From the IMG/VR virus record IMGVR_UViG_2563366990_000004: a stretch of DNA of 46,456 bases; one strand, written 5' to 3'. The DNA comes from a virus (lineage: Duplodnaviria > Heunggongvirae > Uroviricota > Caudoviricetes). A program made the position numbers and the translations under genes. Below are positions 1 through 35,173 of this stretch, piece after piece (position 1 is the first letter of the stretch; every line of letters begins with the position of its first letter). The notes below the pieces were generated by a model, which was given only the letters and a program-made list of their open reading frames with translations, did not search any database and was not told the origin of the DNA.

Positions 1-79
1 AAATACTGTCACGGAAAGTGCAGGCCTGGATGTGATGGAAATCATGTTTCCGGCGCATCCTGTTGATATGGATAATTTT

Positions 80-409
80 TCAGATTTCCGGAAGTCCGTA
101 TTTTGCCCGTGCGCGGTTACATGCTTCATTCGCGATGCCATTTTCGCCGGACATTGCGAATTCCCGGCATGTGGACGGACGGTTCTTGTAAACAGAGCAA
201 TATGCGTTTTTACCCGGAGTTCCCGCCAGAGCGACACATCGGGGATTTTTCTGACTGGTGCCGCGCATACAGCGATGAAAGGGGGATATTTGCTCAGTGA
301 GACTGACCGGAACCTTTCCGCCAGCATCGTCAGCTTCTGCCCAGTAAAAAGAGACGCGGAAAAATGCACAACAGGCACCACACGTCATGCATGGATTGGG
401 GTTATTCAT
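80..409 (-). CDS. YkgJ-family cysteine-cluster protein (UPF0153-like); probable host gene flanking the prophage
   Basis: 109-aa ORF with N-terminal [16 protein letters not shown] cysteine cluster and further conserved Cys/His as in YkgJ-type proteins; lies on the opposite side of the tRNA-fragment att core from the integrase. The overlapping + strand ORF 32..424 is treated as its shadow. Confidence 0.5.
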
Positions 410-548
410 AATTCATCGGTATAGCGATAAATCGTAAAGAGAACAATGTACCTAGTGTGTATTGAGCTAAATATACCAATTAGTATACCAAGTGTATACT
501 AAGAGCAAAAAAAGAAAGGGGCTACCATTTGGTAACCCCTTGATTGTT

Positions 549-608
549 TGGCGGAAGCGCAGAGATTCGAACTCTGGAACCCTTTCGGGTCGCCGGTTTT
601 CAAGACCG
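549..608 (-). tRNA. 3'-terminal fragment (~60 nt) of a tRNA-Ser(UGA)-like gene; prophage attachment-site core at the integrase-proximal junction
   Basis: Reverse complement reads CGGTCTTGAAAACCGGCGACCCGAAAGGGTTCCAGAGTTCGAATCTCTGCGCTTCCGCCA: anticodon stem-loop (anticodon TGA), long variable arm, T-arm (GTTCGAATC), acceptor 3' strand plus CCA. No matching D-arm or 5' acceptor strand follows; phage DNA starts at 609. Confidence 0.55.
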
Positions 609-749
609 AAGAAAAACAAATAAAAATCAGTGTAATACGTGAAGCTGCTGAAAATTTAATCAAATTTAACACCAAGAAAAATCAAGGTGTTAGGAAGTTG
701 CTCATAGCTAGTATACCAAGTATTTTTGCCAGAAAATTTTCTGTATTGC

Positions 750-1769
750 CTACTTGCTAACCACGAGCGGCAGATCCAGTGTTGGTGTGATTTTTGTTTT
801 ACGATCGTAAATCAACACCTGATTTTCTGTTTTATGCCCGCTGAAAATTTGTTTGTCGCGACTGCTGCCTTCGTAATCAGAGATCCCCTTGGCTTTTATA
901 TCGTGAAAATTGCACCCGAACGGAACGCCAACTTTTTGCTCGGCTGAGCGTTTAGCCTGATTCCACCAGTTGTTCAGCGTTTTAGCTATGACTTTCCCGC
1001 CTTTGGTTGTATTGATCACATATTCGCATGTACAGGAAGATACATTTCGGGCTAACTGGATCGCTGTACGTAATCGCGGTGACCATTCCTTGATTTGTTT
1101 GGTGCCGGTTTTGTTTTGCTCAATGTAGATCCCTTTATCCATAATATCCTGCCATTTCAACTCAAGCACATCACCGAGCCTTGCCGCACAGAGATAGGAA
1201 ATCTCCATTGCAATGCGTAACTGTGGAATTGCTTCCGCATATATCGCTGCATACTGTTCATCGGTGATGTAAACAGTGCGGGCTTTAAGAGAGAATTTTC
1301 TGACTCCTTTGCATGGGTTATTCTTCACGTATCCACGCTCATATCCCCACCCGTATACTCGACTCAGGCTTGCCAGTTCATGATTTGCCTGGGTCTTGCT
1401 CTCAAGCCCTCGTTTATCCATGAAAATTCTTACCTGCTCAGTTTTGACATTATCAGCAAGCACTTTTCCGAATACCATCAGCAACGCCTTCTGATGTTGT
1501 CGATAATCTTTTTGGGTTCGGGGGGCCAGTTCTGTAAATGCAGGGGAGTCCATAAACATGTGCCATAATTTAGCTACGGTCATTATGTTGTGGAGTTTTG
1601 CTTTTTCCAGTTCATAATTTTGCCAGACTTTAGCTACGCTGGTTTTCCGCACTCTTCCTAGCCCTATAGTTCTTGTACTTCCTTCTGGTTTCCACACGTA
1701 ACTGTAACCATTCGATCTAACCCGCGGTGGCAGTACATTATCTTTTTTATTTTTTCTTGGTCTTCCCAT
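750..1769 (-). CDS. int: Phage integrase, tyrosine recombinase (lambda-Int family)
   Basis: 339-aa ORF next to the att core; N-terminal arm-binding-like region and C-terminal catalytic-type region (…HDIKAKGISDYEGS…HKTENQVLIYDRK) ending in a conserved Tyr context; preceded by an overlapping excisionase gene. Confidence 0.88.
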   Translation of the reverse strand: MGRPRKNKKDNVLPPRVRSNGYSYVWKPEGSTRTIGLGRVRKTSVAKVWQNYELEKAKLHNIMTVAKLWHMFMDSPAFTELAPRTQKDYRQHQKALLMVFGKVLADNVKTEQVRIFMDKRGLESKTQANHELASLSRVYGWGYERGYVKNNPCKGVRKFSLKARTVYITDEQYAAIYAEAIPQLRIAMEISYLCAARLGDVLELKWQDIMDKGIYIEQNKTGTKQIKEWSPRLRTAIQLARNVSSCTCEYVINTTKGGKVIAKTLNNWWNQAKRSAEQKVGVPFGCNFHDIKAKGISDYEGSSRDKQIFSGHKTENQVLIYDRKTKITPTLDLPLVVSK

Positions 1770-17177: not shown

Positions 17178-17995
17178 AACTGGAAGATTTACCGAAATAC
17201 TACTCCCCAAAATCCCCCGGCCTGACTGATGCATCGGCCTCAACGTCGAAAGATGCGCTGAGTATCACTGATGTGATGGCCGCGCAGGGCATGACACAGA
17301 ATCGGGCTGAGATGGGGTTTTCTGCGTTCCTTGGGAAAATGGGCATTAGTATGAATGACAGAGAGCGGGCAACAGAATTGCTGACAGAATATGCACTCAG
17401 TCGGTGTGATCGCGTGGCGGCGTTAAGAAAACTCCCGGCAGAAATAAAACCGGCAGTGATGCGTATTATGGCTTCGTATGCGTTTGAAGATTATGCCCGT
17501 AGCGCGGCGAGCAAAAAACAGTGCCCCTGCTGTCACGGAAAAAAATTTATTGAAAGCGAGGTTTTTACAAACAAGATCCAGTATCCGGATGGTAAGCCGC
17601 CAGTGTGGGCAAAGTGCACAAAAGGCGTGTATCCGTCTTACTGGGAGGAATGGAAAAAAGTCAGGGAGGTGGTAAAAGTTGCCTGTCCGGAGTGTGGAGG
17701 GAAGGGAGAGGTATCCACTGCCTGTAAAGATTGTCGTGGGCGCGGTGTTGCCATTCATCGTGAAGAGTCGGAAAAACAGGGTGTGCCGGTTTTCAGAAAC
17801 TGTCAGCGTTGTGGTGGGCGTGGCTATGAAAGATTACCTTCAACGGAGGCATTTAATGCCATATGTAATGTAACCGATGCCATATCTCTCGATACATGGA
17901 AAAAAACAGTTAAACGTTTTTACGATACGCTGGTGGTGCAGTTTGATATTGAAGAAGCATGGGCAGAACAACAACTGAAAAAGGTGACCAGATAG
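17174..17995 (+). CDS. Q: Late-gene antitermination protein Q (QuuQ-like) with zinc-finger repeats
   Basis: 273 aa; N-terminus MKLEDLPKYYSPKSP…LSITDVMAAQGM and repeated CxxCxGxG motifs; immediately followed by a lambda-like pR'/qut. Confidence 0.7.
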   Translation: MKLEDLPKYYSPKSPGLTDASASTSKDALSITDVMAAQGMTQNRAEMGFSAFLGKMGISMNDRERATELLTEYALSRCDRVAALRKLPAEIKPAVMRIMASYAFEDYARSAASKKQCPCCHGKKFIESEVFTNKIQYPDGKPPVWAKCTKGVYPSYWEEWKKVREVVKVACPECGGKGEVSTACKDCRGRGVAIHREESEKQGVPVFRNCQRCGGRGYERLPSTEAFNAICNVTDAISLDTWKKTVKRFYDTLVVQFDIEEAWAEQQLKKVTR

Positions 17996-18000
17996 CTTTG

Positions 18001-18050
18001 TTGATTTTTCCCGAATCTGTGGTAAATTTGCCCTAACGATGGGTGTTTTA
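18001..18050 (+). promoter_or_regulatory. Late promoter pR' with qut-like element
   Basis: -35 TTGATT (18001-18006), 16-nt spacer, -10 TAAATT (18023-18028), then TGCCCTAACGATGGGTGTTTT, closely matching lambda pR' (TAAATTTGACTCAACGATGGGTTAATT). Confidence 0.65.
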
Positions 18051-18077
18051 TGCCTGACGTTAGAAGATTTTTTACAC

Positions 18078-18100
18078 CCCGCCGCCTGGCGGGTTTTTTT
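18078..18100 (+). terminator. tR'-like intrinsic terminator
   Basis: CCCGCC-GCCT-GGCGGG hairpin followed by TTTTTTT, ~50 nt downstream of the pR' -10. Confidence 0.65.
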
Positions 18101-18570: not shown

Positions 18571-19623
18571 ATGCTTAGTACTGTAAAAATATCCAGTTGT
18601 GAGTTAATCAACGCCGACTGCCTGGAATTTATCCGGTCGTTACCCGAAAATTCTGTTGACCTGATAGTCACGGACCCGCCGTACTTTAAAGTGAAGCCTG
18701 AGGGCTGGGATAACCAGTGGAAGGGCGACGATGATTACCTGAAGTGGCTGGACCAGTGTCTTGCGCAGTTCTGGCGGGTGCTGAAACCTGCCGGAAGTCT
18801 TTACCTGTTCTGTGGCCATCGCCTGGCATCTGACATTGAAATCATGATGCGTGAACGCTTCAGTGTGCTGAACCATATTATCTGGGCGAAGCCGTCCGGA
18901 CGCTGGAACGGGTGCAACAAGGAAAGCCTGAGGGCGTATTTCCCCGCCACAGAGCGCATTCTGTTCGCGGAACATTATCAGGGGCCGTATCGTCCGAAAG
19001 ATGCCGGGTATGAGGCGAAGGGCAGGGCACTGAAACAGCATGTGATGGCCCCGCTGATTGCTTACTTTCGTGATGCACGTGCTGCCCTGGGGATAACGGC
19101 AAAACAGATTGCTGATGCCACAGGAAAGAAAAACATGGTGTCGCACTGGTTCAGTGCCAGTCAGTGGCAGCTACCGGACGAAAGCGATTATCTGAAATTA
19201 CAGGCGCTGTTTGCCCGGGTGGCAGAAGAGAAGCATCAGCGCGGAGAACTGGAAAAGCCACATCACCAACTGGTCAGCACATACAGTGAACTGAACCGAC
19301 AGTATACGGAACTGCAGAGTGAATATAAGCATCTGCGGCGGTATTTCGGTGTGACGGCGCAGGTGCCGTACACCGATGTGTGGACGCATAAACCGGTGCA
19401 GTACTATCCCGGGAAACATCCGTGCGAAAAACCGGCAGAAATGCTGCAGCAGATAATCAGCGCGAGCAGTCGTCCGGGTGACTTGGTTGCAGATTTCTTC
19501 ATGGGGTCGGGCTCAACCGTCAAAGCAGCGCTGGCACTGGGGCGTCGTGCAACTGGTGTTGAGCTGGAGAGTGAACGTTTTTTACAGACAGTGAAGGAGA
19601 TCCGGGACGATTTTTGCAGGTGA
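18571..19623 (+). CDS. Orphan DNA methyltransferase (beta-class amino-MTase: N-terminal DPPY motif, C-terminal FxGxG SAM motif)
   Basis: 350 aa; DLIVTDPPYF near the N-terminus and DLVADFFMGSGSTVKAA near the C-terminus; no restriction endonuclease gene adjacent. Confidence 0.85.
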   Translation: MLSTVKISSCELINADCLEFIRSLPENSVDLIVTDPPYFKVKPEGWDNQWKGDDDYLKWLDQCLAQFWRVLKPAGSLYLFCGHRLASDIEIMMRERFSVLNHIIWAKPSGRWNGCNKESLRAYFPATERILFAEHYQGPYRPKDAGYEAKGRALKQHVMAPLIAYFRDARAALGITAKQIADATGKKNMVSHWFSASQWQLPDESDYLKLQALFARVAEEKHQRGELEKPHHQLVSTYSELNRQYTELQSEYKHLRRYFGVTAQVPYTDVWTHKPVQYYPGKHPCEKPAEMLQQIISASSRPGDLVADFFMGSGSTVKAALALGRRATGVELESERFLQTVKEIRDDFCR

Positions 19624-19711
19624 CAGAGGTTGAGGAAAGGTTGAAGGGAGGATCATTTGTTATTGTTGTATATAATTATTCTACCCCTTTCCTGAGTCAG
19701 GTAAATATATA

Positions 19712-20434
19712 ATGGCAGTTGTCTGTTCTGTAATTCTGGTTTGTTCCCCGATCAATATTTTTATTGAGAAAGACAAACTTTCACTTGTGCCGGGCATGGT
19801 CATTCTGGTCACCAGAAACATCAGGGAGCTTTTTCGCACTTACACAGACCGGGTTAAGGTTGCTGATATAAATCACGATATAGTCAGTCAATATCTGGAA
19901 GGTGGGCGAAGGCGGATGAGCTCCCCACAGGCATGTTTTCCGCATTATCTCACTTCTGGCATTCATCAGCCTGTACTGGCAGAGGCGTTAATTACTAATC
20001 ATGGATTTCCCAGTGCTCCTTCTGGTGATTTGTCCACGATGACAGGGCTTTCATGTCTTTCTCTGTTTGCCAACGATGAGAGCCTGTCATCATTTTTGTC
20101 AAGGTGTTTAAGCAATACAAGCGATAAAGTCAGGGCAATAATTCAGAGCGATATATCCGTAAACTGGAAGCTTGGTGTTATTGCGTTACAACTGCATATG
20201 AGCGAAAGCTTGTTAAAGAAAAAGCTTAAAGATGAAGGAAACAGCTTCAGCCGCCTGTTGCTGGAAGAGAGGATGCGGGGGGCAGTAAATATGTTATGCT
20301 TTCAATATGGACGGGGAGCGATAGTGGCAGAAAAATGCGGTTATTCAAGCCTGTCTTACTTTATATCAGTATTCCACAGGTATTATGGAGTACCTCCTGA
20401 CAAATATGTGTCTCTGCATATGGTTGACTTTTAA
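19712..20434 (+). CDS. AraC/XylS-family transcriptional regulator (cargo gene)
   Basis: 240 aa; C-terminal double-HTH region (…FSRLLLEERMRGAVNML…IVAEKCGYSSLSYFISVFHRYYGVPP); visibly AT-rich relative to flanking phage genes. Confidence 0.75.
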   Translation: MAVVCSVILVCSPINIFIEKDKLSLVPGMVILVTRNIRELFRTYTDRVKVADINHDIVSQYLEGGRRRMSSPQACFPHYLTSGIHQPVLAEALITNHGFPSAPSGDLSTMTGLSCLSLFANDESLSSFLSRCLSNTSDKVRAIIQSDISVNWKLGVIALQLHMSESLLKKKLKDEGNSFSRLLLEERMRGAVNMLCFQYGRGAIVAEKCGYSSLSYFISVFHRYYGVPPDKYVSLHMVDF

Positions 20435-20556
20435 TTTCATCCTGCTGGCGGATGGAGTGCTGGTGGTCGGCATTGTGGTGGTGCTTTTTCCTTTGGTTAA
20501 AAAGGACATGCCAGGTAGTTAGCGGGTATCAGTCATGCCCAGAAAATTTTAAATGT

Positions 20557-20795
20557 CTCACAATTCAGACGGTTGACAGTTGTCTGTTTTGCGGGGAGTT
20601 TGTTAAAAGAAACTGGCATGGTGAATCCCCCTGAGCGGAGGGGCGACTGGTGCATCAGGTGTTATCTTTGATACCCAGGAAAGTGAACGCGCGGGTTCGG
20701 TGGCACCGGGCTGAACTCACCGGGAGGCACCCGGCACTATGCGCATGATGTACAGATACGCGGCTTCAGCCCCTCTCCGGAGGGGCTTTTCTGTG
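20557..20795 (+). repeat. Repeat unit A (~240 bp) ending in an intrinsic terminator
   Basis: Starts CTCACAATTCAGACGGTTGACAGTTGTCTG; internal hairpin CCCCCTGAGCGGAGGGG; shared block GCGGGTTCGGTGGCACCGGGCTGAACTCACCGGGAGGCACCCGGCA; ends CAGCCCCTCTCCGGAGGGGCTTTTCT. Confidence 0.6.
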
Positions 20796-21042
20796 CCTTA
20801 TGCATCACAGTTTCTGGAACCCTGAGTACTACAGTATCAGTCAGGGTGCTATATTTGCAGATGTGATGAAAGCCTGCCGGCAGGCAGGGCGTATCGGAAA
20901 TGACCCAGTAAGAGAAAACGTTGACTCAGATACCGGTGCTGAGTTACCGGGAAACCGGCATCACATGACCGCTATCCTTCATGGCTCTCTCAGGAGAGCC
21001 TTTTTACTGGAGAAAACCGCTTCCCCGTAAAATGCCGTGTTG

Positions 21043-21282
21043 CTCACAATTCAGTCAGTTGAAGGTTGTCTGCCCGACTGAGAATTTGTTAAAAAATTTC
21101 TGCATGATGAATCCCCCTGTGCGGAGGGGCGGCTGGTGTACGGAATGGTCTCTGATGATCGTTAGCGAGAATGACGCGGGTTCGGTGGCACCGGGCTGAA
21201 CTCACCGGGAGGCACCCGGCATCATGTAATGAACGGTACATAGCGCTACTCTTCAGCCCCTCTCCGGAGGGGCTTTCTTATG
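21043..21282 (+). repeat. Repeat unit B (~240 bp), diverged copy of unit A, ending in an intrinsic terminator
   Basis: CTCACAATTCAGTCAGTTGAAGGTTGTCTG…CCCCCTGTGCGGAGGGG…GCGGGTTCGGTGGCACCGGGCTGAACTCACCGGGAGGCACCCGGCA…CAGCCCCTCTCCGGAGGGGCTTTCTT; a further hairpin with minus-strand terminator polarity at 21290-21315. Confidence 0.6.
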
Positions 21283-21511
21283 GATAAAAAAAGCCCGCAT
21301 GGTGAGATGCGGGCAGCAAGGAATAAACAACAAAACGTGAAGTAATCAATTTTTCAGCTGGCGAATAATACCCGACAGTAATCACTCTGCGCAACTGCGC
21401 GGCCTTTTTCGTATTGCGGGCTGTAGTCTTCCTCCTGCCATTGTCCTGTAACTTCCGGACTTCAGCCCGCCCCTCATCTGACTCACAACATTATCCCGAC
21501 CGGGAGGATTC

Positions 21512-23479
21512 ATGGCATTTAAACACTATGACGTGGTCAGGGCGGCGTCGCCGTCAGACCTTGCGGAGCGACTGACTCAAAAACTGAAGGAGGGGTGGCA
21601 GCCATTTGGCAGTCCTGTCGCCATCACGCCTTATACCCTGATGCAGGCCATTGCGGCGGAAGGTGATGTCACCACACCTGTGGTGGTGAAGCCGTCGGAT
21701 GGAGAAGGCACAGTTATCAGCGCCACCAGCGACCCGGAGTATTACTTTGTTGTGGTTCTGGCAGGGCAGTCAAACGGCATGTCGTATGGTGAAGGCCTTC
21801 CGCTGCCGGAGACATATGACCGTCCGGACCCGCGTATTAAGCAGCTGGCGCGCCGAAGTACGGTGACACCGGGAGGTGCCGCCTGTAAGTATAACGACAT
21901 TATTCCGGCGGACCATTGTCTGCATGATGTGCAGGACATGAGCCGTCTTAACCATCCGAAAGCGGACCTGTCAAAGGGGCAGTACGGAACCGTGGGGCAG
22001 GGGCTGCATATCGCCAAAAAACTGCTGCCGTTTATACCGGCGAATGCGGGCATTCTGCTGGTTCCGTGCTGCCGTGGTGCTTCGGCATTCACAACGGGTG
22101 CAGACGGCACATACAGCGAATCAGCCGGTGCATCGGAAAATTCACTGCGCTGGGGTGTGGGTAAGCCGCTGTATCAGGATTTGGTGAGCCGGACTAAAGC
22201 CGCACTGGCGAAGAACCCGAAAAACCGTCTGCTTGCGGTGGTGTGGATGCAGGGAGAAGGTGATGTGGCAGTGGGGACGCATGCGCAGCATTCAGGGCTG
22301 TTTAGTGCGATGGTGAATCAGTTCAGAACGGACCTTGCCGGTCAGGCATCACAGAGCACAGGAGGCAGCGCATCAGCGGTACCGTGGGTTTGCGGGGACA
22401 CAACGTATTTCTGGAAGCAGCGTCATGCGGAAGGGTATGCATCAGTATACGGAGGGTATAAGGGTAAGGAGTCGCAGAACATTTTCTTTGTACCGTTAAT
22501 GACGGATGAGAATGGTGCGAATGTGCAGACCAATGACCCGGCAGAAGACCCGGACCTGGAAGCCGTCGGTTATTACGGTTCAAAGTGGCGTAATGACCAG
22601 AAGACCTGGACATCTGTGGACAGGGCCAGCCATTTCAGTTCATGGGCTCGCCGTGGGATTATTTCCGACCGTCTGGCAACGGCGATTCTGGTGCATGCCG
22701 GGAGAACCGCTGAATTCATTACCGGAAAACAGCCTGATACGGTGAAGCCCACCGGACCTTCCGGTGAAGGCCCGGAGAGAGAGCCGGAAGCCCCGGTCAG
22801 TAACCGAACCCTGATGAGTCTGCTGGCGTCCGGTGAAGACCTGGCATCACAGGGCTGGCGCTATTATCACAAACCGGCGAGCGGAGACAGTGTTGATAAA
22901 AACATCGCTGAGGCTGTGGTCAGTGATGAGGGTGCCACCGGTGGTAAGGCCCTGCAACTGAACAAACCGGAAAGCCACATCTGGTTTCTGGAGCATGATG
23001 CCGCCGGGCAGGGGGCAGAGTTGCTGAAGAAAGGCGGACGTGTGAGCGTGCGGTTTAAGGTGCCGGGCGCACTGGTGCCGAATCAGTTTGCCCTGGGTAT
23101 TTACTGGCAGTTGTCGTCCCTGCCGGAGGGAGTGACGCTGTCAGAGGAAGGCAACGACATGCTGATGTCCTTCTTCCTGCAGACGGATGCGACGAACCTG
23201 AACGCGATGTACCACAAGAAGCAGAATGCGAAGCTGGATACGTTCGGGGTCTTTGATAACGGATGGCACACACTGGCTTTTGAGTTTGCCGGAAACAACA
23301 GCATTCAGGTGACGCCGGTACTGGATGAGAAACGGGGTACACCGTTCACACTGGTGAAATCTCCGGCATCAGGGGCGGCGGACAAACTGCAACTGACAGG
23401 CATATCAAAGGCGGCGACATATACGCTGCTGATTGACAGTGTGAAGGTGGAAGTGAACAACGCGGATGCCGCGGCATGA
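21512..23479 (+). CDS. nanS-p: NanS-p-type sialate O-acetylesterase (N-terminal DUF1737, SASA/SGNH esterase core)
   Basis: 655 aa; N-terminus MAFKHYDVVRAASPSDLAERLTQKLKEGWQPFG (DUF1737-like) and esterase motif VVLAGQSNGMSYG; sits between Q and the lysis genes as nanS-p does in Stx and related lambdoid phages. Confidence 0.75.
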   Translation: MAFKHYDVVRAASPSDLAERLTQKLKEGWQPFGSPVAITPYTLMQAIAAEGDVTTPVVVKPSDGEGTVISATSDPEYYFVVVLAGQSNGMSYGEGLPLPETYDRPDPRIKQLARRSTVTPGGAACKYNDIIPADHCLHDVQDMSRLNHPKADLSKGQYGTVGQGLHIAKKLLPFIPANAGILLVPCCRGASAFTTGADGTYSESAGASENSLRWGVGKPLYQDLVSRTKAALAKNPKNRLLAVVWMQGEGDVAVGTHAQHSGLFSAMVNQFRTDLAGQASQSTGGSASAVPWVCGDTTYFWKQRHAEGYASVYGGYKGKESQNIFFVPLMTDENGANVQTNDPAEDPDLEAVGYYGSKWRNDQKTWTSVDRASHFSSWARRGIISDRLATAILVHAGRTAEFITGKQPDTVKPTGPSGEGPEREPEAPVSNRTLMSLLASGEDLASQGWRYYHKPASGDSVDKNIAEAVVSDEGATGGKALQLNKPESHIWFLEHDAAGQGAELLKKGGRVSVRFKVPGALVPNQFALGIYWQLSSLPEGVTLSEEGNDMLMSFFLQTDATNLNAMYHKKQNAKLDTFGVFDNGWHTLAFEFAGNNSIQVTPVLDEKRGTPFTLVKSPASGAADKLQLTGISKAATYTLLIDSVKVEVNNADAAA

Positions 23480-24095: not shown

Positions 24096-24171
24096 GCATG
24101 CGCAAGGGACCATCGGTGTGTGTCGGTGGTCTTTATATTGTTGTGAGCTTCCGGATTGCGGGAGACGGGGT

Positions 24172-24387
24172 ATGTACCAGATGGAAAAAATCACAACAGG
24201 TGTGTCATACACCACGTCAGCGGTGGGAACGGGCTACTGGTTCCTGCAGTTGCTGGACAGGGTTTCCCCGTCTCAGTGGGCGGCAATAGGCGTGCTGGGG
24301 AGTCTGCTGTTTGGGCTGCTGACATACCTGACTAACCTGTATTTCAAGATTAAAGAAGACCGTCGTAAGGCGGCGCGGGGAGAGTAG
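24172..24387 (+). CDS. S: Class II holin, phage-21 S-type pinholin with dual start (Met1/Met4)
   Basis: 71 aa; [71 protein letters not shown] is close to S21 (…[52 protein letters not shown]). Confidence 0.85.
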
Positions 24388-24390
24388 ACG

Positions 24391-25548
24391 ATGAATAAAC
24401 AATACGAACTGGTTGTTAAAGGGATAAATAATTACCCGGATAAGATTACTGTTACTGTGGCACTGGAAATTGCCGGGCAGCCGTCGTTGTTGTCGCCATA
24501 TGTGGCGATTAGTCTTGACCGTACTGAAGGTGCCAAGCTGGAATTTTACGAAGCTGAGGCGAAAAAGAAGGCGAAGCAGTTTTTCATGGATATTGCTGCC
24601 GCTTTATGTGAAGGGGATGAACAGTCACGGGAAAAGCGCCTCTGTTCAGAAGAGCGGTATACCATACAAATTAACAATGCATATAACACGATACAGTCAG
24701 AAAAAGATGATATCGAATCACGCATTGAAAAACTGGAGAACAGCGTCGTTGAACTGAATAAAAAACTGTCGGTGCAGATCCCTTCCGAAGGTGAAAAAAA
24801 ACGCCGTGATGAGCAGTTCGCGGCGTTTTACGATTATTGCCGGAAAGTGATGAGCAGAAATCTCGCAGAGTGTTTCCGTATTCAAAAAAACAGAGAGCGC
24901 TCTGCAAATAGTGAGATTCTGGATAATTTTTTAAAGGGGACGCATCTCGCCAGTGATTGTTTCATTGCTCATTCTTTTGGTGGCTTTCATGAGGCCATCA
25001 AACATGATGTTGAGAGAAGTCCAGGTATCCTCTGTTCCATTCCCGTAAGCATCGAAATAGACACAAATACGATAACCGGTGAACTCGTTACCGCCGGAGT
25101 CGGTATATTCCGTCATGAGGGGAACGATGCCAAAGGTTCCTTTACAAAAATCGGGCCGTTCTTTCTGAAGGTAGATTTCAGTGACCAGGAATGGGAGTGT
25201 AACCGGCCATCCTTTGTTGTATCCGGTGATGACGGGAAAATAACTATCTCAGAAAATGGAAAAGTAACACCGCCATCGCACCAGCACTGTGAGACGCTCA
25301 TTGAATTTGCCATTGATTACCTGAAGAACAATAAAAAGCAGGGACTAATGAAGCGCATTGGTCGTTGCATGGGGTATCTGCAGGTAGCCGCTGAGATTGA
25401 AGCGCTGGTCAGTGGTGCTGATAAGGATGCAGTTGTGCGGGAGACCGTTCTTCGTGATTTCAATACTCCACCCTTTAAGACTGAGCCAGATGATTGGATC
25501 CAGCCGGGGCTGACTTATCTGAAAGGGCGGTTTGGGGCGGTTATCTGA
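24391..25548 (+). CDS. Unknown 385-aa protein inserted between holin and endolysin (no recognisable family; central coiled-coil; possible AHSFGG elbow-like motif)
   Basis: Long uninterrupted ORF starting 4 nt after the holin stop; AT-rich; no signal peptide or TM segment evident. Confidence 0.6.
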   Translation: MNKQYELVVKGINNYPDKITVTVALEIAGQPSLLSPYVAISLDRTEGAKLEFYEAEAKKKAKQFFMDIAAALCEGDEQSREKRLCSEERYTIQINNAYNTIQSEKDDIESRIEKLENSVVELNKKLSVQIPSEGEKKRRDEQFAAFYDYCRKVMSRNLAECFRIQKNRERSANSEILDNFLKGTHLASDCFIAHSFGGFHEAIKHDVERSPGILCSIPVSIEIDTNTITGELVTAGVGIFRHEGNDAKGSFTKIGPFFLKVDFSDQEWECNRPSFVVSGDDGKITISENGKVTPPSHQHCETLIEFAIDYLKNNKKQGLMKRIGRCMGYLQVAAEIEALVSGADKDAVVRETVLRDFNTPPFKTEPDDWIQPGLTYLKGRFGAVI

Positions 25549-25861
25549 ACTTAAGCGATAGTTTATTGAAGAGCCGTTTTTTTTGCAGACAGGCAAAGTT
25601 TTTATCCCATGAACAACCCGGGTGACTGAGTTCGTCATTAAACCATTTGTTAATGTTGTGCTTCAGATGCTGAAGCATCAATGGTGTTAATGTGGTGATA
25701 ATGATATCCAGTGTTTCTGTTGAAAGCATGCCGTAAGGCTCTGAGAGAATGGCCTGAGTGGTTTCGCTATTATCCGGGATAAGCGCTTTTAATTCTGATT
25801 TAACATTTTCGTTCATTATCTGCAAAAACTCTTTGCGTAAATTGTTGTCATTATTATTCAT
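25541..25861 (-). CDS. Unknown 106-aa protein, convergent with and overlapping the 3' end of the 385-aa gene
   Basis: ORF on the opposite strand within the same AT-rich insertion; starts MNNNDNNLRKEF…; 8-nt overlap of the 3' ends. Confidence 0.45.
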   Translation of the reverse strand: MNNNDNNLRKEFLQIMNENVKSELKALIPDNSETTQAILSEPYGMLSTETLDIIITTLTPLMLQHLKHNINKWFNDELSHPGCSWDKNFACLQKKRLFNKLSLKFR

Positions 25862-25986
25862 TTATAAAATCTCATTTGTTGTTACCGGGTGTGTCCTGGT
25901 GCCTGTTGATTATATTCATCGTGAGTACCGGATTATATATCTGACATATCCAGGAATAAGAGAGCTATAAATCCTGATAAATATCC

Positions 25987-26520
25987 ATGAACACCAAAAT
26001 CAAATACGGCCTGTCGGCTGCCGTTCTGGCGCTGATTGCCGCAGGTGCGCCTGCGCCTGAAATCCTCGACCAGTTTCTGGATGAAAAAGAAGGCAACCAC
26101 ACCACGGCATACCGTGATGGCGCGGGTATCTGGACCATCTGCCGGGGTGCCATCATGGTGGATGGTAAGCCTGTGATTCCTGGCATGAAGCTGTCGAAGG
26201 GGAAATGCGACCGGGTTAACGCTATCGAACGGGATAAGGCGCTGGCATGGGTGGAGAAAAACATCAGAGTGCCACTGACCGAACCCCAGAAAGCGGGTAT
26301 TGCGTCATTCTGCCCGTATAACATTGGCCCCGGTAAGTGTTTCCCGTCGACGTTTTATAAACGAATTAATGCAGGCGATCGCAGGGGAGCGTGTGAAGCG
26401 ATTCGCTGGTGGATTAAGGACGGTGGCAGAGACTGCCGTATCCGCTCAAATAATTGCTACGGTCAGGTATCCCGTCGCGACCAGGAGAGTGCGCTGGCAT
26501 GCTGGGGTATCGACAGGTAG
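25987..26520 (+). CDS. R: SAR endolysin (T4-lysozyme family with N-terminal signal-anchor-release domain)
   Basis: 177 aa; N-terminal weakly hydrophobic Gly/Ala-rich stretch (LSAAVLALIAAGAPAP) then lysozyme core resembling R21 (…GIWTICRGAIMVDGKPV…); partners a pinholin. Confidence 0.85.
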   Translation: MNTKIKYGLSAAVLALIAAGAPAPEILDQFLDEKEGNHTTAYRDGAGIWTICRGAIMVDGKPVIPGMKLSKGKCDRVNAIERDKALAWVEKNIRVPLTEPQKAGIASFCPYNIGPGKCFPSTFYKRINAGDRRGACEAIRWWIKDGGRDCRIRSNNCYGQVSRRDQESALACWGIDR

Positions 26521-26817: not shown

Positions 26818-27285
26818 ATGAACCGCGTTCTGTGTGTGGTCATCATTGCCCTGCTGGTGGCCTGTGGTGCGCTTAGTCTGGGGCTGAATCATTACCGCGA
26901 TAACGCCATCACCTACAAAGCGCAGCGCGATAAAAAAGCCAGAGAGCTGGAGCAGGCAAACGCAACCATTACTGATATGCAGGTGCGCCAGCGTGATGTT
27001 GCTGCGCTCGATGCAAAATACTCGAGGGAATTAGCCGATGCGAGAGCTGAAAATGAAACTCTGCGTGCTGATGTTGCCGCTGGTCGTAAGCGCCTGCGGA
27101 TCAACGCCACCTGCCACGGTACCGTGCGTGAAGCCACCAGCACCTCCGGCGTGGATAATGCAACCGGCCCCCGACTGGCAGACACCGCTGAACGGGATTA
27201 TTTCATCCTCAGAGAACGGTTGATGACAATGCAGAAGCAGCTGGAAGGGGCGAAGGAATATATCCGCACTCAGTGTATTAACTAG
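26818..27285 (+). CDS. Rz: Rz i-spanin
   Basis: 155 aa; N-terminal TM then coiled-coil; close to lambda Rz (…[45 protein letters not shown]…). Confidence 0.85.
27053..27223 (+). CDS. Rz1: Rz1 o-spanin lipoprotein embedded in the +1 frame of Rz
   Basis: [56 protein letters not shown]; lipobox VVSAC and proline-rich body as in lambda Rz1. Confidence 0.8.
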
Positions 27286-27980: not shown

Positions 27981-28529
27981 ATGAATGTTAATAAAAAGAA
28001 GCTTGCTGAAATTTTTAATGTCGATATACGCACTATTGATCGCTGGCAAACTCAGGGGCTCCCTCAGATATCTGGTGGAGGAAAAGGTGTTGAGGTCATC
28101 TTTGATTCTGCGAAGGCGATCGAATGGTATGCTCAGCGCGAAGCTGATATTGAAAATGAAAAACTCCGTAAAGAGGTCGAGGATTTGAGGGCTGCCAGCG
28201 AATCAGACCTTCAGCCCGGCACCATTGATTACGAACGTTACCGACTGACGAAGGCACAGGCAGATGCACAGGAGCTGAAAAATGCTCGTGAGGAAGGCCT
28301 TGTCCTCGAGACGGAGTTATTTACCTACATCTTTCAGCGAGTGGCACAGAATATATCTGGGATCCTTGTCCGTGTCCCTCAGACACTGCAGCGTAAATAC
28401 CCTGAGATATCACCCGCACATCTTGATGCTATGAAAACTGAAATCGCGAAAGCATCCGATGTGGCTTCTGAAGCCGGTGAGAATGTGCGCAGGTGGATTG
28501 ATGATTTCAGACGAACTGAGGGCGGCTAA
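27981..28529 (+). CDS. nu1: Terminase small subunit Nu1
   Basis: [36 protein letters not shown]… versus lambda Nu1 MEVNKKQLADIFGASIRTIQNWQEQGMPVLRGGGKG…. Confidence 0.9.
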
Positions 28530-30429
28530 TTCTGCAGGAGCGATAGCAACCGGCCTTCTTGCGCTAAAAATTCCTGTCCCCCTGACGACAGTTCAGTGGG
28601 CAGATCGACACTATTACCTTCCGAAAGAGTCATCTTACACCCCGGGGCGGTGGGAAACACTGCCATTTCAGGTTGCCATCATGAACAGCATGGGGAATGA
28701 CCGGATCCGCACGGTTAATCTGATTAAATCTGCCCGTGTTGGTTATACAAAGATGTTGCTGGGAGTGGAGGCTTATTTTATTGAGCATAAATCACGCAAC
28801 AGCCTTCTTTTCCAGCCTACGGATTCTGCTGCTGAAGATTTTATGAAATCTCATGTGGAACCCACGATCAGGGATGTGTCGGTTTTACTCGATCTTGCAC
28901 CGTGGTTTGGGCGTAAACATCGTGATAATACCCTCACGCTGAAACGCTTTTCATCGGGTGTGGGTTTCTGGTGCCTGGGTGGTGCGGCAGCAAAAAACTA
29001 CCGTGAAAAATCCGTGGATGTGGTCTGCTATGACGAACTTTCCTCGTTCGAGCCGGATGTTGAAAAAGAGGGCTCGCCAACTCTGCTGGGGGATAAGCGT
29101 ATTGAGGGCTCGGTATGGCCAAAATCCATTCGCGGCTCGACGCCTAAAATAAAAGGCACCTGCCAGATCGAAAAAGCGGCCAACGAGTCGGCGCATTTCA
29201 TGCGTTTTTATGTGCCCTGCCCGCACTGTGGGGAGGAGCAGTATCTGAAATTTGGCGATGAATCCACGCCTTTTGGGCTTAAATGGGAGAAGGACAGTCC
29301 CGAAAGTGTTTTCTACCTCTGTGAACATCATGGCTGCGTGATCCATCAGTCTGAGCTTGACCAGAGCAACGGGCGGTGGATCTGTGAAAACACGGGGATG
29401 TGGACCCGTGACGGTCTGACGTTTTTCAGCGCTGCGGGTAATGAAATTCCGCCGCCGCGCTCCATCACATTCCATATCTGGACGGCGTACAGTCCGTTCA
29501 CCACCTGGGTACAGATTGTCTATGACTGGCTGGATGCACTGAAAGATCCCAACGGCCTGAAAACTTTTGTGAACACCACGCTGGGCGAGACCTGGGAAGA
29601 GGCCGTGGGCGAAAAACTCGATCACCAGGTGCTGATGGATAAGGTTGTGCGTTACACGGCGGCGGTACCTGCCCGGGTGGTTTATCTGACGGCGGGCATT
29701 GACTCGCAGCGTAACCGTTTTGAGATGTATGTCTGGGGATGGGCTCCGGGAGAGGAAGCCTTTCTGGTGGATAAAATCATCATTATGGGGCGTCCTGATG
29801 AGGAAGAGACTCTGTTACGTGTGGATGCGGCGATCAACAAAAAATACCGCCATGCAGACGGAACCGAAATGACCATTTCCCGTGTCTGCTGGGACACCGG
29901 GGGGATCGATGGCGAAATCGTTTATCAGAGGTCAAAAAAACACGGTGTTTTCCGGGTGCTGCCGGTAAAAGGCGCATCTGTCTATGGCAAGCCGGTGATC
30001 ACCATGCCAAAAACCCGCAATCAGCGGGGCGTGTATCTGTGTGAAGTGGGGACGGACACCGCAAAAGAAATTCTCTATGCCCGTATGAAAGCCGATCCCA
30101 CGCCTGCGGATGAAGCCACGTCGTATGCCATCCGTTTTCCTGATGATCCGGAGATTTTTTCGCAGACAGAGGCGCAGCAACTGGTCGCGGAAGAGCTTGT
30201 GGAGAAGTGGGAAAAAGGAAAGATGCGTCTGCTGTGGGATAACAAAAAGCGGCGTAACGAAGCGCTGGACTGCCTGGTGTATGCCTACGCGGCATTACGT
30301 GTGTCCGTGCAACGCTGGCAGCTTGATCTGGCTGTACTGGCAAAATCCCGGGAAGAAGAGACGACCCGGCCAACCCTGAAAGAACTGGCAGCGAAGCTGT
30401 CCGGAGGAGTGAATGGTTACAGTCGCTGA
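28501..30429 (+). CDS. A: Terminase large subunit A
   Basis: Near-collinear with lambda gpA (…[48 protein letters not shown]…). Start set at ATG 28501 by alignment to the gpA N-terminus, overlapping Nu1 by 29 nt. Confidence 0.9.
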
Positions 30430-33739: not shown

Positions 33740-34087
33740 ATGGTAACGAAAACCATCACTGAACAACGTGCAGAAGTACGTATTTTTGCCGGTAATGATC
33801 CGGCTCATACCGCCACAGGCAGCAGCGGGATTTCTCAGGCAACACCGGCACTGACGCCCCTGATGCTGGATGAAGCCAGCGGGAAACTGGTGGTCTGGGA
33901 CGGACAGAAAGCCGGTAGTGCGGCTGGCATACTGGTACTGCCGCTTGAAGGCACAGAGACGGTGCTGACGTATTACAAGTCGGGAACCTTTGCGACGGAG
34001 GCAATCCGCTGGCCTGAAAGTGTGGATGAACACAAAAAGGCCAACGCCTTTGTCGGCACAGCCCTGAGTCACGCGGCGCTGCCGTAA
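33740..34087 (+). CDS. D: Head decoration protein D
   Basis: …DPAHTATGSSG…TPLMLDEASGKLVVWDG…GILVLPLEG…YYKSGTF… matches lambda gpD. Confidence 0.85.
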   Translation: MVTKTITEQRAEVRIFAGNDPAHTATGSSGISQATPALTPLMLDEASGKLVVWDGQKAGSAAGILVLPLEGTETVLTYYKSGTFATEAIRWPESVDEHKKANAFVGTALSHAALP

Positions 34088-34144: not shown

Positions 34145-35173
34145 ATGGGATTGTTTACGACCCGCCAGTTACTCGGTTATACCGAACAAAAAGTGAAATT
34201 TCGTGCGCTGTTTCTGGAACTGTTTTTCCGCCGTACGGTGAATTTCCACACCGAAGAGGTGATGCTGGACAAAATTACCGGAAAAACGCCGGTGGCAGCC
34301 TATGTCTCCCCGGTTGTTGAAGGAAAAGTGCTGCGTCATCGTGGTGGTGAAACCCGCGTGTTACGTCCGGGCTACGTCAAGCCGAAACACGAATTTAATT
34401 ACCAGCAGGCGGTGGAGCGCCTTCCCGGTGAAGATCCGGCGCAGCTGAACGACCCGACCTACCGTCGTCTGCGTATCATCACCGATAACCTCAAACAGGA
34501 AGAGCACGCCATTGTCCAGGTGGAAGAAATGCAGGCGGTGAATGCCGTGCTGTATGGCAAATACACCATGGAAGGGGAGCAGTTTGATACTGTCGAGGTG
34601 GATTTCGGGCGCTCTGAAGGAAATAACATTGAGCAGGCTGACGGTAAAAAATGGTCTGAGCAGGACCGTGATACGTTTGATCCGACGCATGATATTGACC
34701 TCTACTGCGATCAGGCCAGCGGCCTTGTGAATATCGCCATTATGGACGGTACGGTCTGGCGTCTGCTGAATGGCTTTAAGCTGTTCCGCGAAAAACTGGA
34801 TACCCGTCGCGGCTCAAATTCACAACTCGAAACGGCAGTGAAAGATCTGGGCGCAGTGGTGTCCTTCAAGGGGTATTACGGCGATCTGGCCATTGTGGTG
34901 GCGAAAACGTCTTATGTGGCAGAGGACGGTACCGAAAAACGTTATCTGCCGGAGGGCACGCTGGTCCTGGGAAATACGTCAGCGGAGGGCATCCGTTGCT
35001 ATGGTGCCATTCAGGATGCGCAGGCGTTGTCCGAAGGTGTGGTGGCCTCTTCCCGTTATCCGAAACACTGGATGACCGTGGGCGATCCGGCCCGTGAATT
35101 CACCATGACGCAGTCCGCTCCGCTGATGGTGCTGCCGGATCCGGATGAGTTTGTGGTGGTACAGGTGAAATAA
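34145..35173 (+). CDS. E: Major capsid protein E
   Basis: 342 aa; collinear with lambda gpE (…YVSPVVEGKVLRHRGGETRVLRPGYVKPKHE…GDPAREFTMTQSAPLMVLPDPDEFVVVQV…). Confidence 0.9.
   Translation: MGLFTTRQLLGYTEQKVKFRALFLELFFRRTVNFHTEEVMLDKITGKTPVAAYVSPVVEGKVLRHRGGETRVLRPGYVKPKHEFNYQQAVERLPGEDPAQLNDPTYRRLRIITDNLKQEEHAIVQVEEMQAVNAVLYGKYTMEGEQFDTVEVDFGRSEGNNIEQADGKKWSEQDRDTFDPTHDIDLYCDQASGLVNIAIMDGTVWRLLNGFKLFREKLDTRRGSNSQLETAVKDLGAVVSFKGYYGDLAIVVAKTSYVAEDGTEKRYLPEGTLVLGNTSAEGIRCYGAIQDAQALSEGVVASSRYPKHWMTVGDPAREFTMTQSAPLMVLPDPDEFVVVQVK

Follow-up and report, generated by a model that had tools for sequence, protein, structure and literature searches.

A NanS-p-type sialate O-acetylesterase gene in the late operon of a lambda-type phage without stx, with an N-terminal loop that tracks head type across related loci

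The 46,456-nucleotide sequence analysed here (the window; IMG/VR record IMGVR_UViG_2563366990_000004, a virus of the Caudoviricetes) carries a nanS-p-type gene for a predicted sialate O-acetylesterase. A sequence-only reading had described it as a 655-aa esterase with the motif GQSNGMSYG, a homologue of the gene found downstream of stx, and as late-operon cargo that enables lysogens to de-acetylate mucin sialic acids. In the open reading frame (ORF) listing, 21512..23479 on the + strand is a single ATG-started frame of 655 aa, with a TGA stop at 23477-23479, a GGAGG Shine-Dalgarno sequence 5 nt upstream of the ATG and the motif at residues 85-93; coordinates, length and motif are exactly as previously given. 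The protein begins MAFKHYDV..., and since the opening M[ATS][FI]KHYDVVRA is common to more than 200 homologous loci, the start codon of nanS-p can be considered fixed. The ORFs of 53-122 aa listed on other frames and strands inside the gene are taken to be incidental. The gene and its parts are:

21512..23479, + strand: nanS-p-type gene, 655 aa, intact, TGA included (ORF, PHROG 143, Pfam, PDB 3pt5 and 6yp6).
21518..21661, + strand: DUF1737 N-terminal domain, residues 3-50 (Pfam PF08410; alignment with phi24B gp84).
21722..22690, + strand: SASA / SGNH type II esterase domain, residues 71-393 (phmmer to 3pt5; Pfam SASA).
21767..21772, + strand: codons of Gln86 (oxyanion hole) and Ser87 (nucleophile) in GQSN (alignment to NanS Gln18/Ser19).
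22631..22633, + strand: codon of His374 (catalytic base) in SHFSS (alignment to NanS His301).
22901..23461, + strand: C-terminal lectin-like jelly-roll domain, residues 464-650, with DUF6645 at 505-618 (PDB 6yp6; Pfam DUF6645).

The domain assignments bore out the NanS-p identification. Pfam models for DUF1737 (residues 3-50, E=1e-15), SASA (residues 80-276, E=8e-12, 45.7 bits against a cut-off of 24.8) and DUF6645 (residues 505-618, E=7e-46, full profile length) all matched, and PHROG 143, an unnamed family, covered the whole protein (E=0). A phmmer search aligned residues 71-393 with the E. coli O157:H7 NanS (YjhS) structure 3pt5 at E=2e-117 and 57% identity over 318 aligned positions; residues 464-650 matched 6yp6, the C-terminal domain of phi24B vb_24B_21 deposited as 'NanS-p', at E=3e-62. 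The NCBIfam search returned no model for the protein and only spurious LysJ matches. NanS catalysis relies on Ser19 and His301; Gln18 contributes to the oxyanion hole, and a catalytic Asp is lacking (PMC9063846). Gln86, Ser87 and His374 of the window protein align to NanS Gln18, Ser19 and His301 (the last being chain residue 312 in 3pt5); the catalytic Ser and His, whose mutation would have spoken against the assignment, are thus conserved together with the oxyanion Gln. Chromosomal NanS shares this catalytic domain, dyad and Gln, but it is a single-domain protein of about 326 aa in the nan regulon, whereas the window protein is phage-encoded in a late operon and adds a 70-residue DUF1737 region with linker and about 260 residues of linker and lectin-like domain. 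Judged on its sequence features, the ORF is an intact, bona fide member of the NanS-p family.

The same data bear on whether the gene might be an inactive remnant of a decaying prophage, without current function. Many E. coli prophages are defective, and some relatives of nanS-p are truncated to 77 aa; the window copy, however, is not shortened (655 aa, relatives having 630-658), retains a strong Shine-Dalgarno sequence and every catalytic residue, and is 99.2% identical in amino acids to a copy in an Stx2b prophage, while the integrase, Q, lysis, head and tail gene set of the prophage appears complete. We consider decay very improbable.

That closest relative, in E. coli strain STEC1590, is 99.3% identical at the nucleotide level, is annotated 'SASA family carbohydrate esterase' and lies directly 3' of stxA2b/stxB2b, in keeping with the claimed homology to the gene downstream of stx; the best phage-database match reached only about 80% nucleotide identity. 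The NanS-p proteins of enterohaemorrhagic E. coli (EHEC; 933W L0105/z1466, EDL933 NanS-p1 to p7 and those of O104:H4) have the same three domains, the same catalytic motif and the same position between Q/stx and the holin gene, but the window copy belongs to an allele group found downstream of stx2b. Relative to the 933W/phi24B-type allele it is 67% identical overall, the figures by domain being 64% for DUF1737, 78% for the catalytic part and 60% for the C-terminal part. Every NanS-p allele tested from EDL933 and O104:H4 is an active esterase and supports growth on 5-N-acetyl-9-O-acetylneuraminic acid (Neu5,9Ac2; review PMC8065619). By analogy with these characterised homologues, the window protein would be expected to act on Neu5,9Ac2 as well.

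The neighbourhood of the gene matches the late-operon location that had been proposed for it, with Q, a methylase, holin, lysozyme and Rz genes all identified around it. The order, all on the + strand, is RusA, Q, methylase, an AraC-like gene, nanS-p, DUF1378, holin, a 385-aa protein, lysozyme and Rz; the methyltransferase is of the type that sits 5' of stx in Stx2 phages. The flanking features that bear on expression and lysis are:

16803-17177, + strand: RusA.
17174..17995, + strand: antiterminator Q, 273 aa (Pfam Antiterm PF03589, E=5e-52).
18001..18100, + strand: candidate late promoter pR' with a tR'-like terminator (sequence reading; terminator scan).
18571..19623, + strand: N6/N4 DNA methyltransferase (Pfam N6_N4_Mtase, E=2e-43; 95% identical in amino acids to its counterpart in Stx2a phage Stx2_95).
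23630..23812, + strand: DUF1378 small protein, conserved between nanS-p and the holin gene (Pfam, E=7e-38).
24118..24387, + strand: P21-type holin S (Pfam Phage_holin_2_1, E=1.5e-32).
25987..26520, + strand: endolysin, a phage lysozyme (Pfam, E=4e-23).
26818..27285, + strand: Rz spanin (Pfam Phage_lysis, E=3e-49).

Straight after the Q stop codon lies TTGATT-16 nt-TAAATT, with a TG 5' of TAAATT that gives an extended -10 element, then AACGAT at 18035-18040 and a GC-rich, tR'-like hairpin at 18078-18093 whose T run reaches 18100. This arrangement presumably resembles lambda pR' with its sigma70-dependent pause element and tR'. In contrast to that lambda-like appearance, the Q protein encoded beside the site belongs to Pfam PF03589. 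Terminator-like sites are abundant between 17900 and 24400 (18, against 6.1 ± 2.8 in shuffles); on the + strand 5' of nanS-p they occur at 18078, 18407, 20768, 20983, 21255 and 21387, and four of them fall at most 750 bp from the ATG. A + strand promoter scan directly 5' of that ATG found none, the nearest promoter-like site (20397-20424) being within the 3' end of the AraC-family gene. In quantitative PCR experiments, nanS-p rises together with stx2a on mitomycin C induction (PMC10462455).

The simplest reading of these signals is that nanS-p is a Q-dependent late gene. Q-modified RNA polymerase would start at pR' just 3' of Q, and the transcript would read through several intrinsic terminators, the methylase and the AraC-family gene, on into the lysis and head genes. 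Characterised homologues suggest that expression of the window gene, too, depends on induction; because theirs rises on induction, an uninduced lysogen would make little NanS-p. Additionally, no signal peptide or hydrophobic N-terminal stretch was seen in the 655-aa sequence, so the protein would be made in induced cells only and leave at lysis. Outside the cell, the predicted three-domain sialate 9-O-acetylesterase—DUF1737, an SGNH type II (SASA) domain whose dyad is Ser87-His374 and whose oxyanion hole contains Gln86, and a lectin-like domain—would take 9-O-acetyl groups off Neu5,9Ac2 on mucin glycans, freeing sialic acid for sialidases and for sibling lysogens. By analogy with its homologues, the most likely function is to de-O-acetylate the Neu5,9Ac2 of mucin glycans once lysis has released the enzyme. 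We put this explanation as a whole, i.e., an intact NanS-p esterase produced as a Q-dependent late gene and acting after lysis, at a probability of roughly 0.8.

The expression signals also bear on the proposal that nanS-p is pure lysogenic-conversion cargo (a moron), by which the lysogen itself feeds on O-acetylated sialic acids, the gene moves together with the stx/moron slot and the N-domain has no role in the virion. The growth on Neu5,9Ac2 that homologues support in EDL933 and O104:H4 (PMC8065619) argues for such a benefit, as does the position of nanS-p beside a variable moron slot, occupied by stx in some phages and by an AraC-like regulator in the window. The lack of a promoter-like site directly upstream, the several terminator-like hairpins found there instead, the missing signal peptide and the induction-linked expression of homologues all argue against it. 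The earlier claim of cargo that lets lysogens de-acetylate sialic acids is supported in part only; the two further points that weaken it, a capsid-bound homologue and an anchor loop that follows head type, concern the N-terminal domain.

The homologue of phage phi24B, gp84, is among the most abundant virion proteins of that phage (bioRxiv 10.64898/2026.04.10.717836). It decorates the capsid through a DUF1737 hexamer that plugs the central hexon of each T=9 facet, inserting into the hexon pore an anchor loop that carries a Tyr42 'tooth'; binding is confined to this flat central hexon (bioRxiv 10.64898/2026.04.10.717836). The protein is processed after release, with SSP linker motifs tentatively proposed as autoprocessing sites, and an analogy to mucus-adherence capsid proteins has been drawn (bioRxiv 10.64898/2026.04.10.717836). 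We found Tyr42, Gly54 and SISSP in the vb_24B_21 sequence at the positions given in the preprint. Most database DUF1737 proteins are single-domain (bioRxiv 10.64898/2026.04.10.717836). Among the IMG/VR loci of the present analysis, L032 and L042 have a nanS-p frame that ends after 77 aa, leaving approximately a stand-alone DUF1737 with linker.

The window protein is homologous to gp84 over its full length, occupies the same late-gene position, conserves the DUF1737 helix and core (MAFKHYDVVRAASPSDLA..KLKEGWQP) and has a Tyr in its anchor loop: the loop variant of the window, SPVAITPYTLMQAIA, includes Tyr41. The two loops nevertheless differ, that of the window being three residues shorter and of different sequence (SPVAITPYTLMQ against SALISTAGYGAEFIQ in gp84). 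The phages differ as well, the window encoding a lambda-type siphovirus with gpE and gpD and phi24B being a T=9 podovirus with a Phage_capsid_3 capsid. The head of the window phage, whose capsid DUF1737 would have to bind, and its tail are encoded 3' of Rz by lambda-type Nu1/A terminase, portal, gpC protease, gpD-like, gpE, gpV and tape-measure genes, among them:

28459..30429, + strand: lambda gpA-type large terminase, the head-module marker (PHROG 15, E=0).
33740-34087, + strand: gpD-like head decoration protein (PHROG 49, 'head decoration').
34145-35173, + strand: gpE-type major capsid protein (PHROG major head protein; Pfam Phage_cap_E, E=4e-67).

A broader comparison of loci revealed how the DUF1737 loop is distributed over head types. 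The sample comprised 248 loci with 10-kb flanks, collected from four IMG/VR scans and annotated records and reduced to 206 distinct 3-kb cores; the head module was typed by its large terminase, and association was measured on those 74 distinct loci whose terminase could be typed. To each of the four terminase types belongs one capsid family: Phage_cap_E (lambda and the window), Peptidase_S78 with Phage_capsid (HK97-like), CLP_protease with Phage_capsid_4 (type B) and Phage_capsid_3 (phi24B). The DUF1737 loop, in turn, falls into three discrete variants, namely loop 1 (that of the window), loop 2 (GPFSSYTDDGAALIQ) and loop 3 (..AGYGAEFIQ), which were distributed over the 74 loci as follows:

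Loop 1: lambda-A 19, HK97-like 8, type B 1, phi24B-type 0.
Loop 2: lambda-A 2, HK97-like 0, type B 23, phi24B-type 0.
Loop 3: lambda-A 0, HK97-like 1, type B 0, phi24B-type 20.

The adjusted mutual information (AMI) between loop and terminase type was 0.72, with a Cramer's V of 0.92, and this association was reached in 0 of 2000 permutations—a p-value that overstates independence, since the loci are related by descent. On either side of the loop, association with terminase type fell off:

DUF1737 residues 1-27: AMI 0.46.
Q type: AMI 0.33.
C-terminal domain: AMI 0.18.
Esterase body: AMI 0.07.
stx status: AMI 0.06.
300 bp upstream (first 49-locus sample): AMI 0.08-0.15.
1 kb downstream (first 49-locus sample): AMI -0.01.

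The anchor loop is thus the peak of association with the head module, between stretches of shuffled sequence. Plain linkage as the source of the loop/head association is not supported, the body, C-terminal domain and flanks associating far more weakly. Within one cluster of esterase bodies (cluster 0), loop 2 occurred with type B heads (15 loci, plus 2 with lambda-A), loop 3 with phi24B-type heads (14, plus 1 HK97-like) and loop 1 with lambda-A or HK97-like heads (9). When distinct mosaics of loop, body, C-terminal domain and terminase were counted, 21 of 24 obeyed the loop/head rule, and one combination of body and C-terminal type was found with each of the three loops, the head type changing accordingly. 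An example from the allele group of the window is locus L007, which has a type B head and stx2b: its body and C-terminal domain are 98% and 99% identical to those of the window, but its N-domain only 65%. Such a peak is what selection for a physical fit between loop and head would produce, and it would be unexpected for unconstrained cargo.

On this basis, NanS-p of the window may be carried out of the cell on the capsid, with DUF1737 as the point of attachment, as is gp84 of phi24B. Its loop 1 anchor would then match the head type of the phage, and the enzyme would be both a mucus-modifying decoration carried on the virion and a released 'public good'. Several observations weigh against this. 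First, capsids of two unrelated families, lambda gpE and HK97-like, occur together with loop 1, and residues 1-76 are 100% identical in STEC1590, which has an HK97-like head; a strict fit of one N-domain to one capsid is ruled out by this identical loop on both head types. The same identity of N-domains across two unrelated head modules speaks for the cargo proposal. Second, 4 of the 74 loci (L083, L125, L215 and L232) break the rule: in two of them loop 2 occurs with a lambda-A terminase, in one loop 1 with type B and in another, an stx1 phage, loop 3 with an HK97-like terminase; these could be recent recombinants with a mismatched anchor. Third, terminase type is a proxy for capsid type, their correspondence being checked directly only for a limited set (the window, STEC1590, L007 and L003, plus a few more loci). 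Fourth, the window capsid is of the lambda type and has a gpD decoration of its own; its triangulation number is presumably T=7, and a T=7 head is without the flat central hexon that gp84 binds; tblastn between the window and the phi24B head and capsid genes showed no similarity, so that the partner capsid of gp84 has no counterpart here. Finally, the SSP motif is absent from the window protein, whose linkers read ...EGDVTTPVVV... and ...KPTGPSGEG.... The two capsid families of loop 1, the four rule-breakers, the terminase proxy, the kinship of the loci and the T=7 head together lead us to rate attachment to the virion at just short of even odds.

The cargo proposal, for its part, has to accommodate a homologue that is a major virion protein in phi24B and a DUF1737 loop matched to head type although both flanks and the esterase body are shuffled; weighing these against the points in its favour, we regard it as unlikely, if a serious contender. 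A third proposal, that of a virion-borne deacetylase of the bacterial surface (lipopolysaccharide O-antigen or capsule, e.g., O-acetylated polysialic acid) that aids adsorption in the manner of tailspike deacetylases, has been raised as an open possibility in a review (PMC8065619) and would agree with the virion association of gp84 and with a weak PHROG 'tail protein' match to residues 174-276 (E=1.4e-6). The phi24B homologue, however, sits on the capsid rather than the tail, the catalytic domain shares 57% identity with NanS, which is specific for sialate, homologues act on Neu5,9Ac2 and mucin glycans, and the window encodes a separate lambda-type tail with a J protein. A bacterial-surface target is hence improbable. 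Were the window enzyme bound to the virion, the capsid would display on its surface a module that both binds and modifies glycans, a situation comparable to T4 Hoc and 'bacteriophage adherence to mucus'; Hoc, unlike the window protein, has Ig-like domains, no enzyme activity and no sequence relationship to it.

Beyond the window, DUF1737 might be a general, exchangeable capsid anchor, with loops 1, 2 and 3 each fitted to particular head lineages (lambda gpE and HK97-like; ClpP-fused Phage_capsid_4; phi24B Phage_capsid_3), and NanS-p, the present copy on its lambda-type T=7 head included, a structural, virion-displayed enzyme that modifies mucin rather than a moron across most E. coli lambdoid prophages. 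We offer this tentatively, as somewhat less likely than not. NanS-p is among the most widespread 'accessory' genes of these prophages and is usually counted as host-adaptation or virulence-associated cargo; if in every head lineage its N-domain served to anchor it to the capsid and was matched to the head, the enzyme would primarily be a virion component. Gut colonisation, mucus penetration by Stx and non-Stx phages and phage spread between strains would then become questions about the particle, and the growth benefit of the lysogen a side effect of a trait that helps the phage to move through mucus or adhere to it. The co-variation of loop and head makes the idea directly testable. The gene as such was known before; what the head-matched loop adds is a lead of modest novelty, which extends a very recent structural result to other head lineages.

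The carriage of nanS-p without stx, which the sequence-only reading had singled out, is real in this phage. Searches of the 46-kb window by tblastn with StxA and StxB of Stx2a and Stx2b, from two Stx2 phages, revealed no stx remnant (all E>1). It is also the usual condition of the gene and so not special: among 173 distinct IMG/VR nanS-p loci whose upstream sequence extends over 2.5 kb or more, stx was present in only 50, and in 5 of the 58 with the N-domain type of the window. Copies in non-Stx prophages have already been published (PMC10462455, PMC8065619). Matches to nanS-p occurred in 1304 of 5426 complete E. coli genomes, at a median of 4 places per genome. A scan of genome contigs gave 13 loci, in which full three-domain relatives (57-58% identity) were confined to Escherichia albertii and one Escherichia sp.; the other matches covered the protein in part, e.g., the SASA domain alone in Proteus faecis.

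The slot that holds stx in Stx phages has a different content here. Against the Stx2a phage Stx2_95, the window is collinear through the methylase (95% nucleotide identity) and again from the base after stxB (window position 21044); the gap between these collinear parts holds an AraC-family gene and an extra copy of a segment of about 235 bp that follows stxB. No tRNA genes were found by ARAGORN in the window, the slot upstream of the stx position included. The features of the slot are:

19712..20434, + strand: AraC-family (YdeO/GadX-like) regulator, 240 aa, in the stx/tRNA slot (Pfam HTH_AraC/HTH_18).
20557..20789, + strand: first copy of the ~235-bp direct repeat of the post-stxB segment, with a hairpin at 20768-20787 at its end (repeat search; Stx2_95 blastn).
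21043..21276, + strand: second copy of the ~235-bp repeat, with an identical hairpin at 21255-21274 (repeat search; Stx2_95 blastn).

In NCBIfam, the AraC-family protein is closest to YdeO (E=4e-32) and GadX (E=3e-25), both below the cut-offs, and AraC-like genes with 60-64% amino acid identity occupy the same slot in 14 IMG/VR loci. A megablast search with the AraC segment against the 5426 complete E. coli genomes gave no match, while relatives at about 70% nucleotide identity were present in 806 of them; moreover, in a search for the exact mosaic of methylase, AraC-family gene and nanS-p, no record among these genomes covers at least 80% of window 19600-21511. By sequence, the gene is a divergent allele of the prophage-encoded YdeO/GadX-like regulators. 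Regulators of this kind (PsrA/PsrB, PatE) modulate acid resistance and the locus of enterocyte effacement in EHEC.

The post-stxB segment of Stx2_95 matched both repeat copies in blastn, the copies being 78-100% identical in blocks and each ending in the terminator-like hairpin AGCCCCTCTCCGGAGGGGCT. From the second copy on, the window runs collinear with the spacer that separates stxB from nanS-p in Stx phages. The duplication looks like a recombination scar at the downstream border of an exchangeable stx/moron slot.

Two further regions of the window deserve mention. One is its left end, next to the integrase; the other lies within the lysis cassette:

750-1769, - strand: integrase (gene identified in the window).
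24391-25548, + strand: 385-aa protein with a DUF1327 N-terminus, residues 1-83 (Pfam).

The flank beyond the integrase (window 1-760) is only 93-96% identical to the best of the 5426 E. coli genomes and carries a YkgJ-family gene, which in E. coli adjoins a tRNA-Ser site; the window itself holds no intact tRNA according to ARAGORN. The host could be some divergent or non-coli Escherichia. Between holin and endolysin, the 385-aa ORF continues past DUF1327 for about 300 residues that have no Pfam or NCBIfam match. It lies partly within 25001-26000, the late-region stretch of lowest GC content in the window (0.43), and an ORF of 106 aa occupies 25541-25861 on the opposite strand. The region of the 385-aa ORF could be a second moron or a defence insertion within the lysis cassette.

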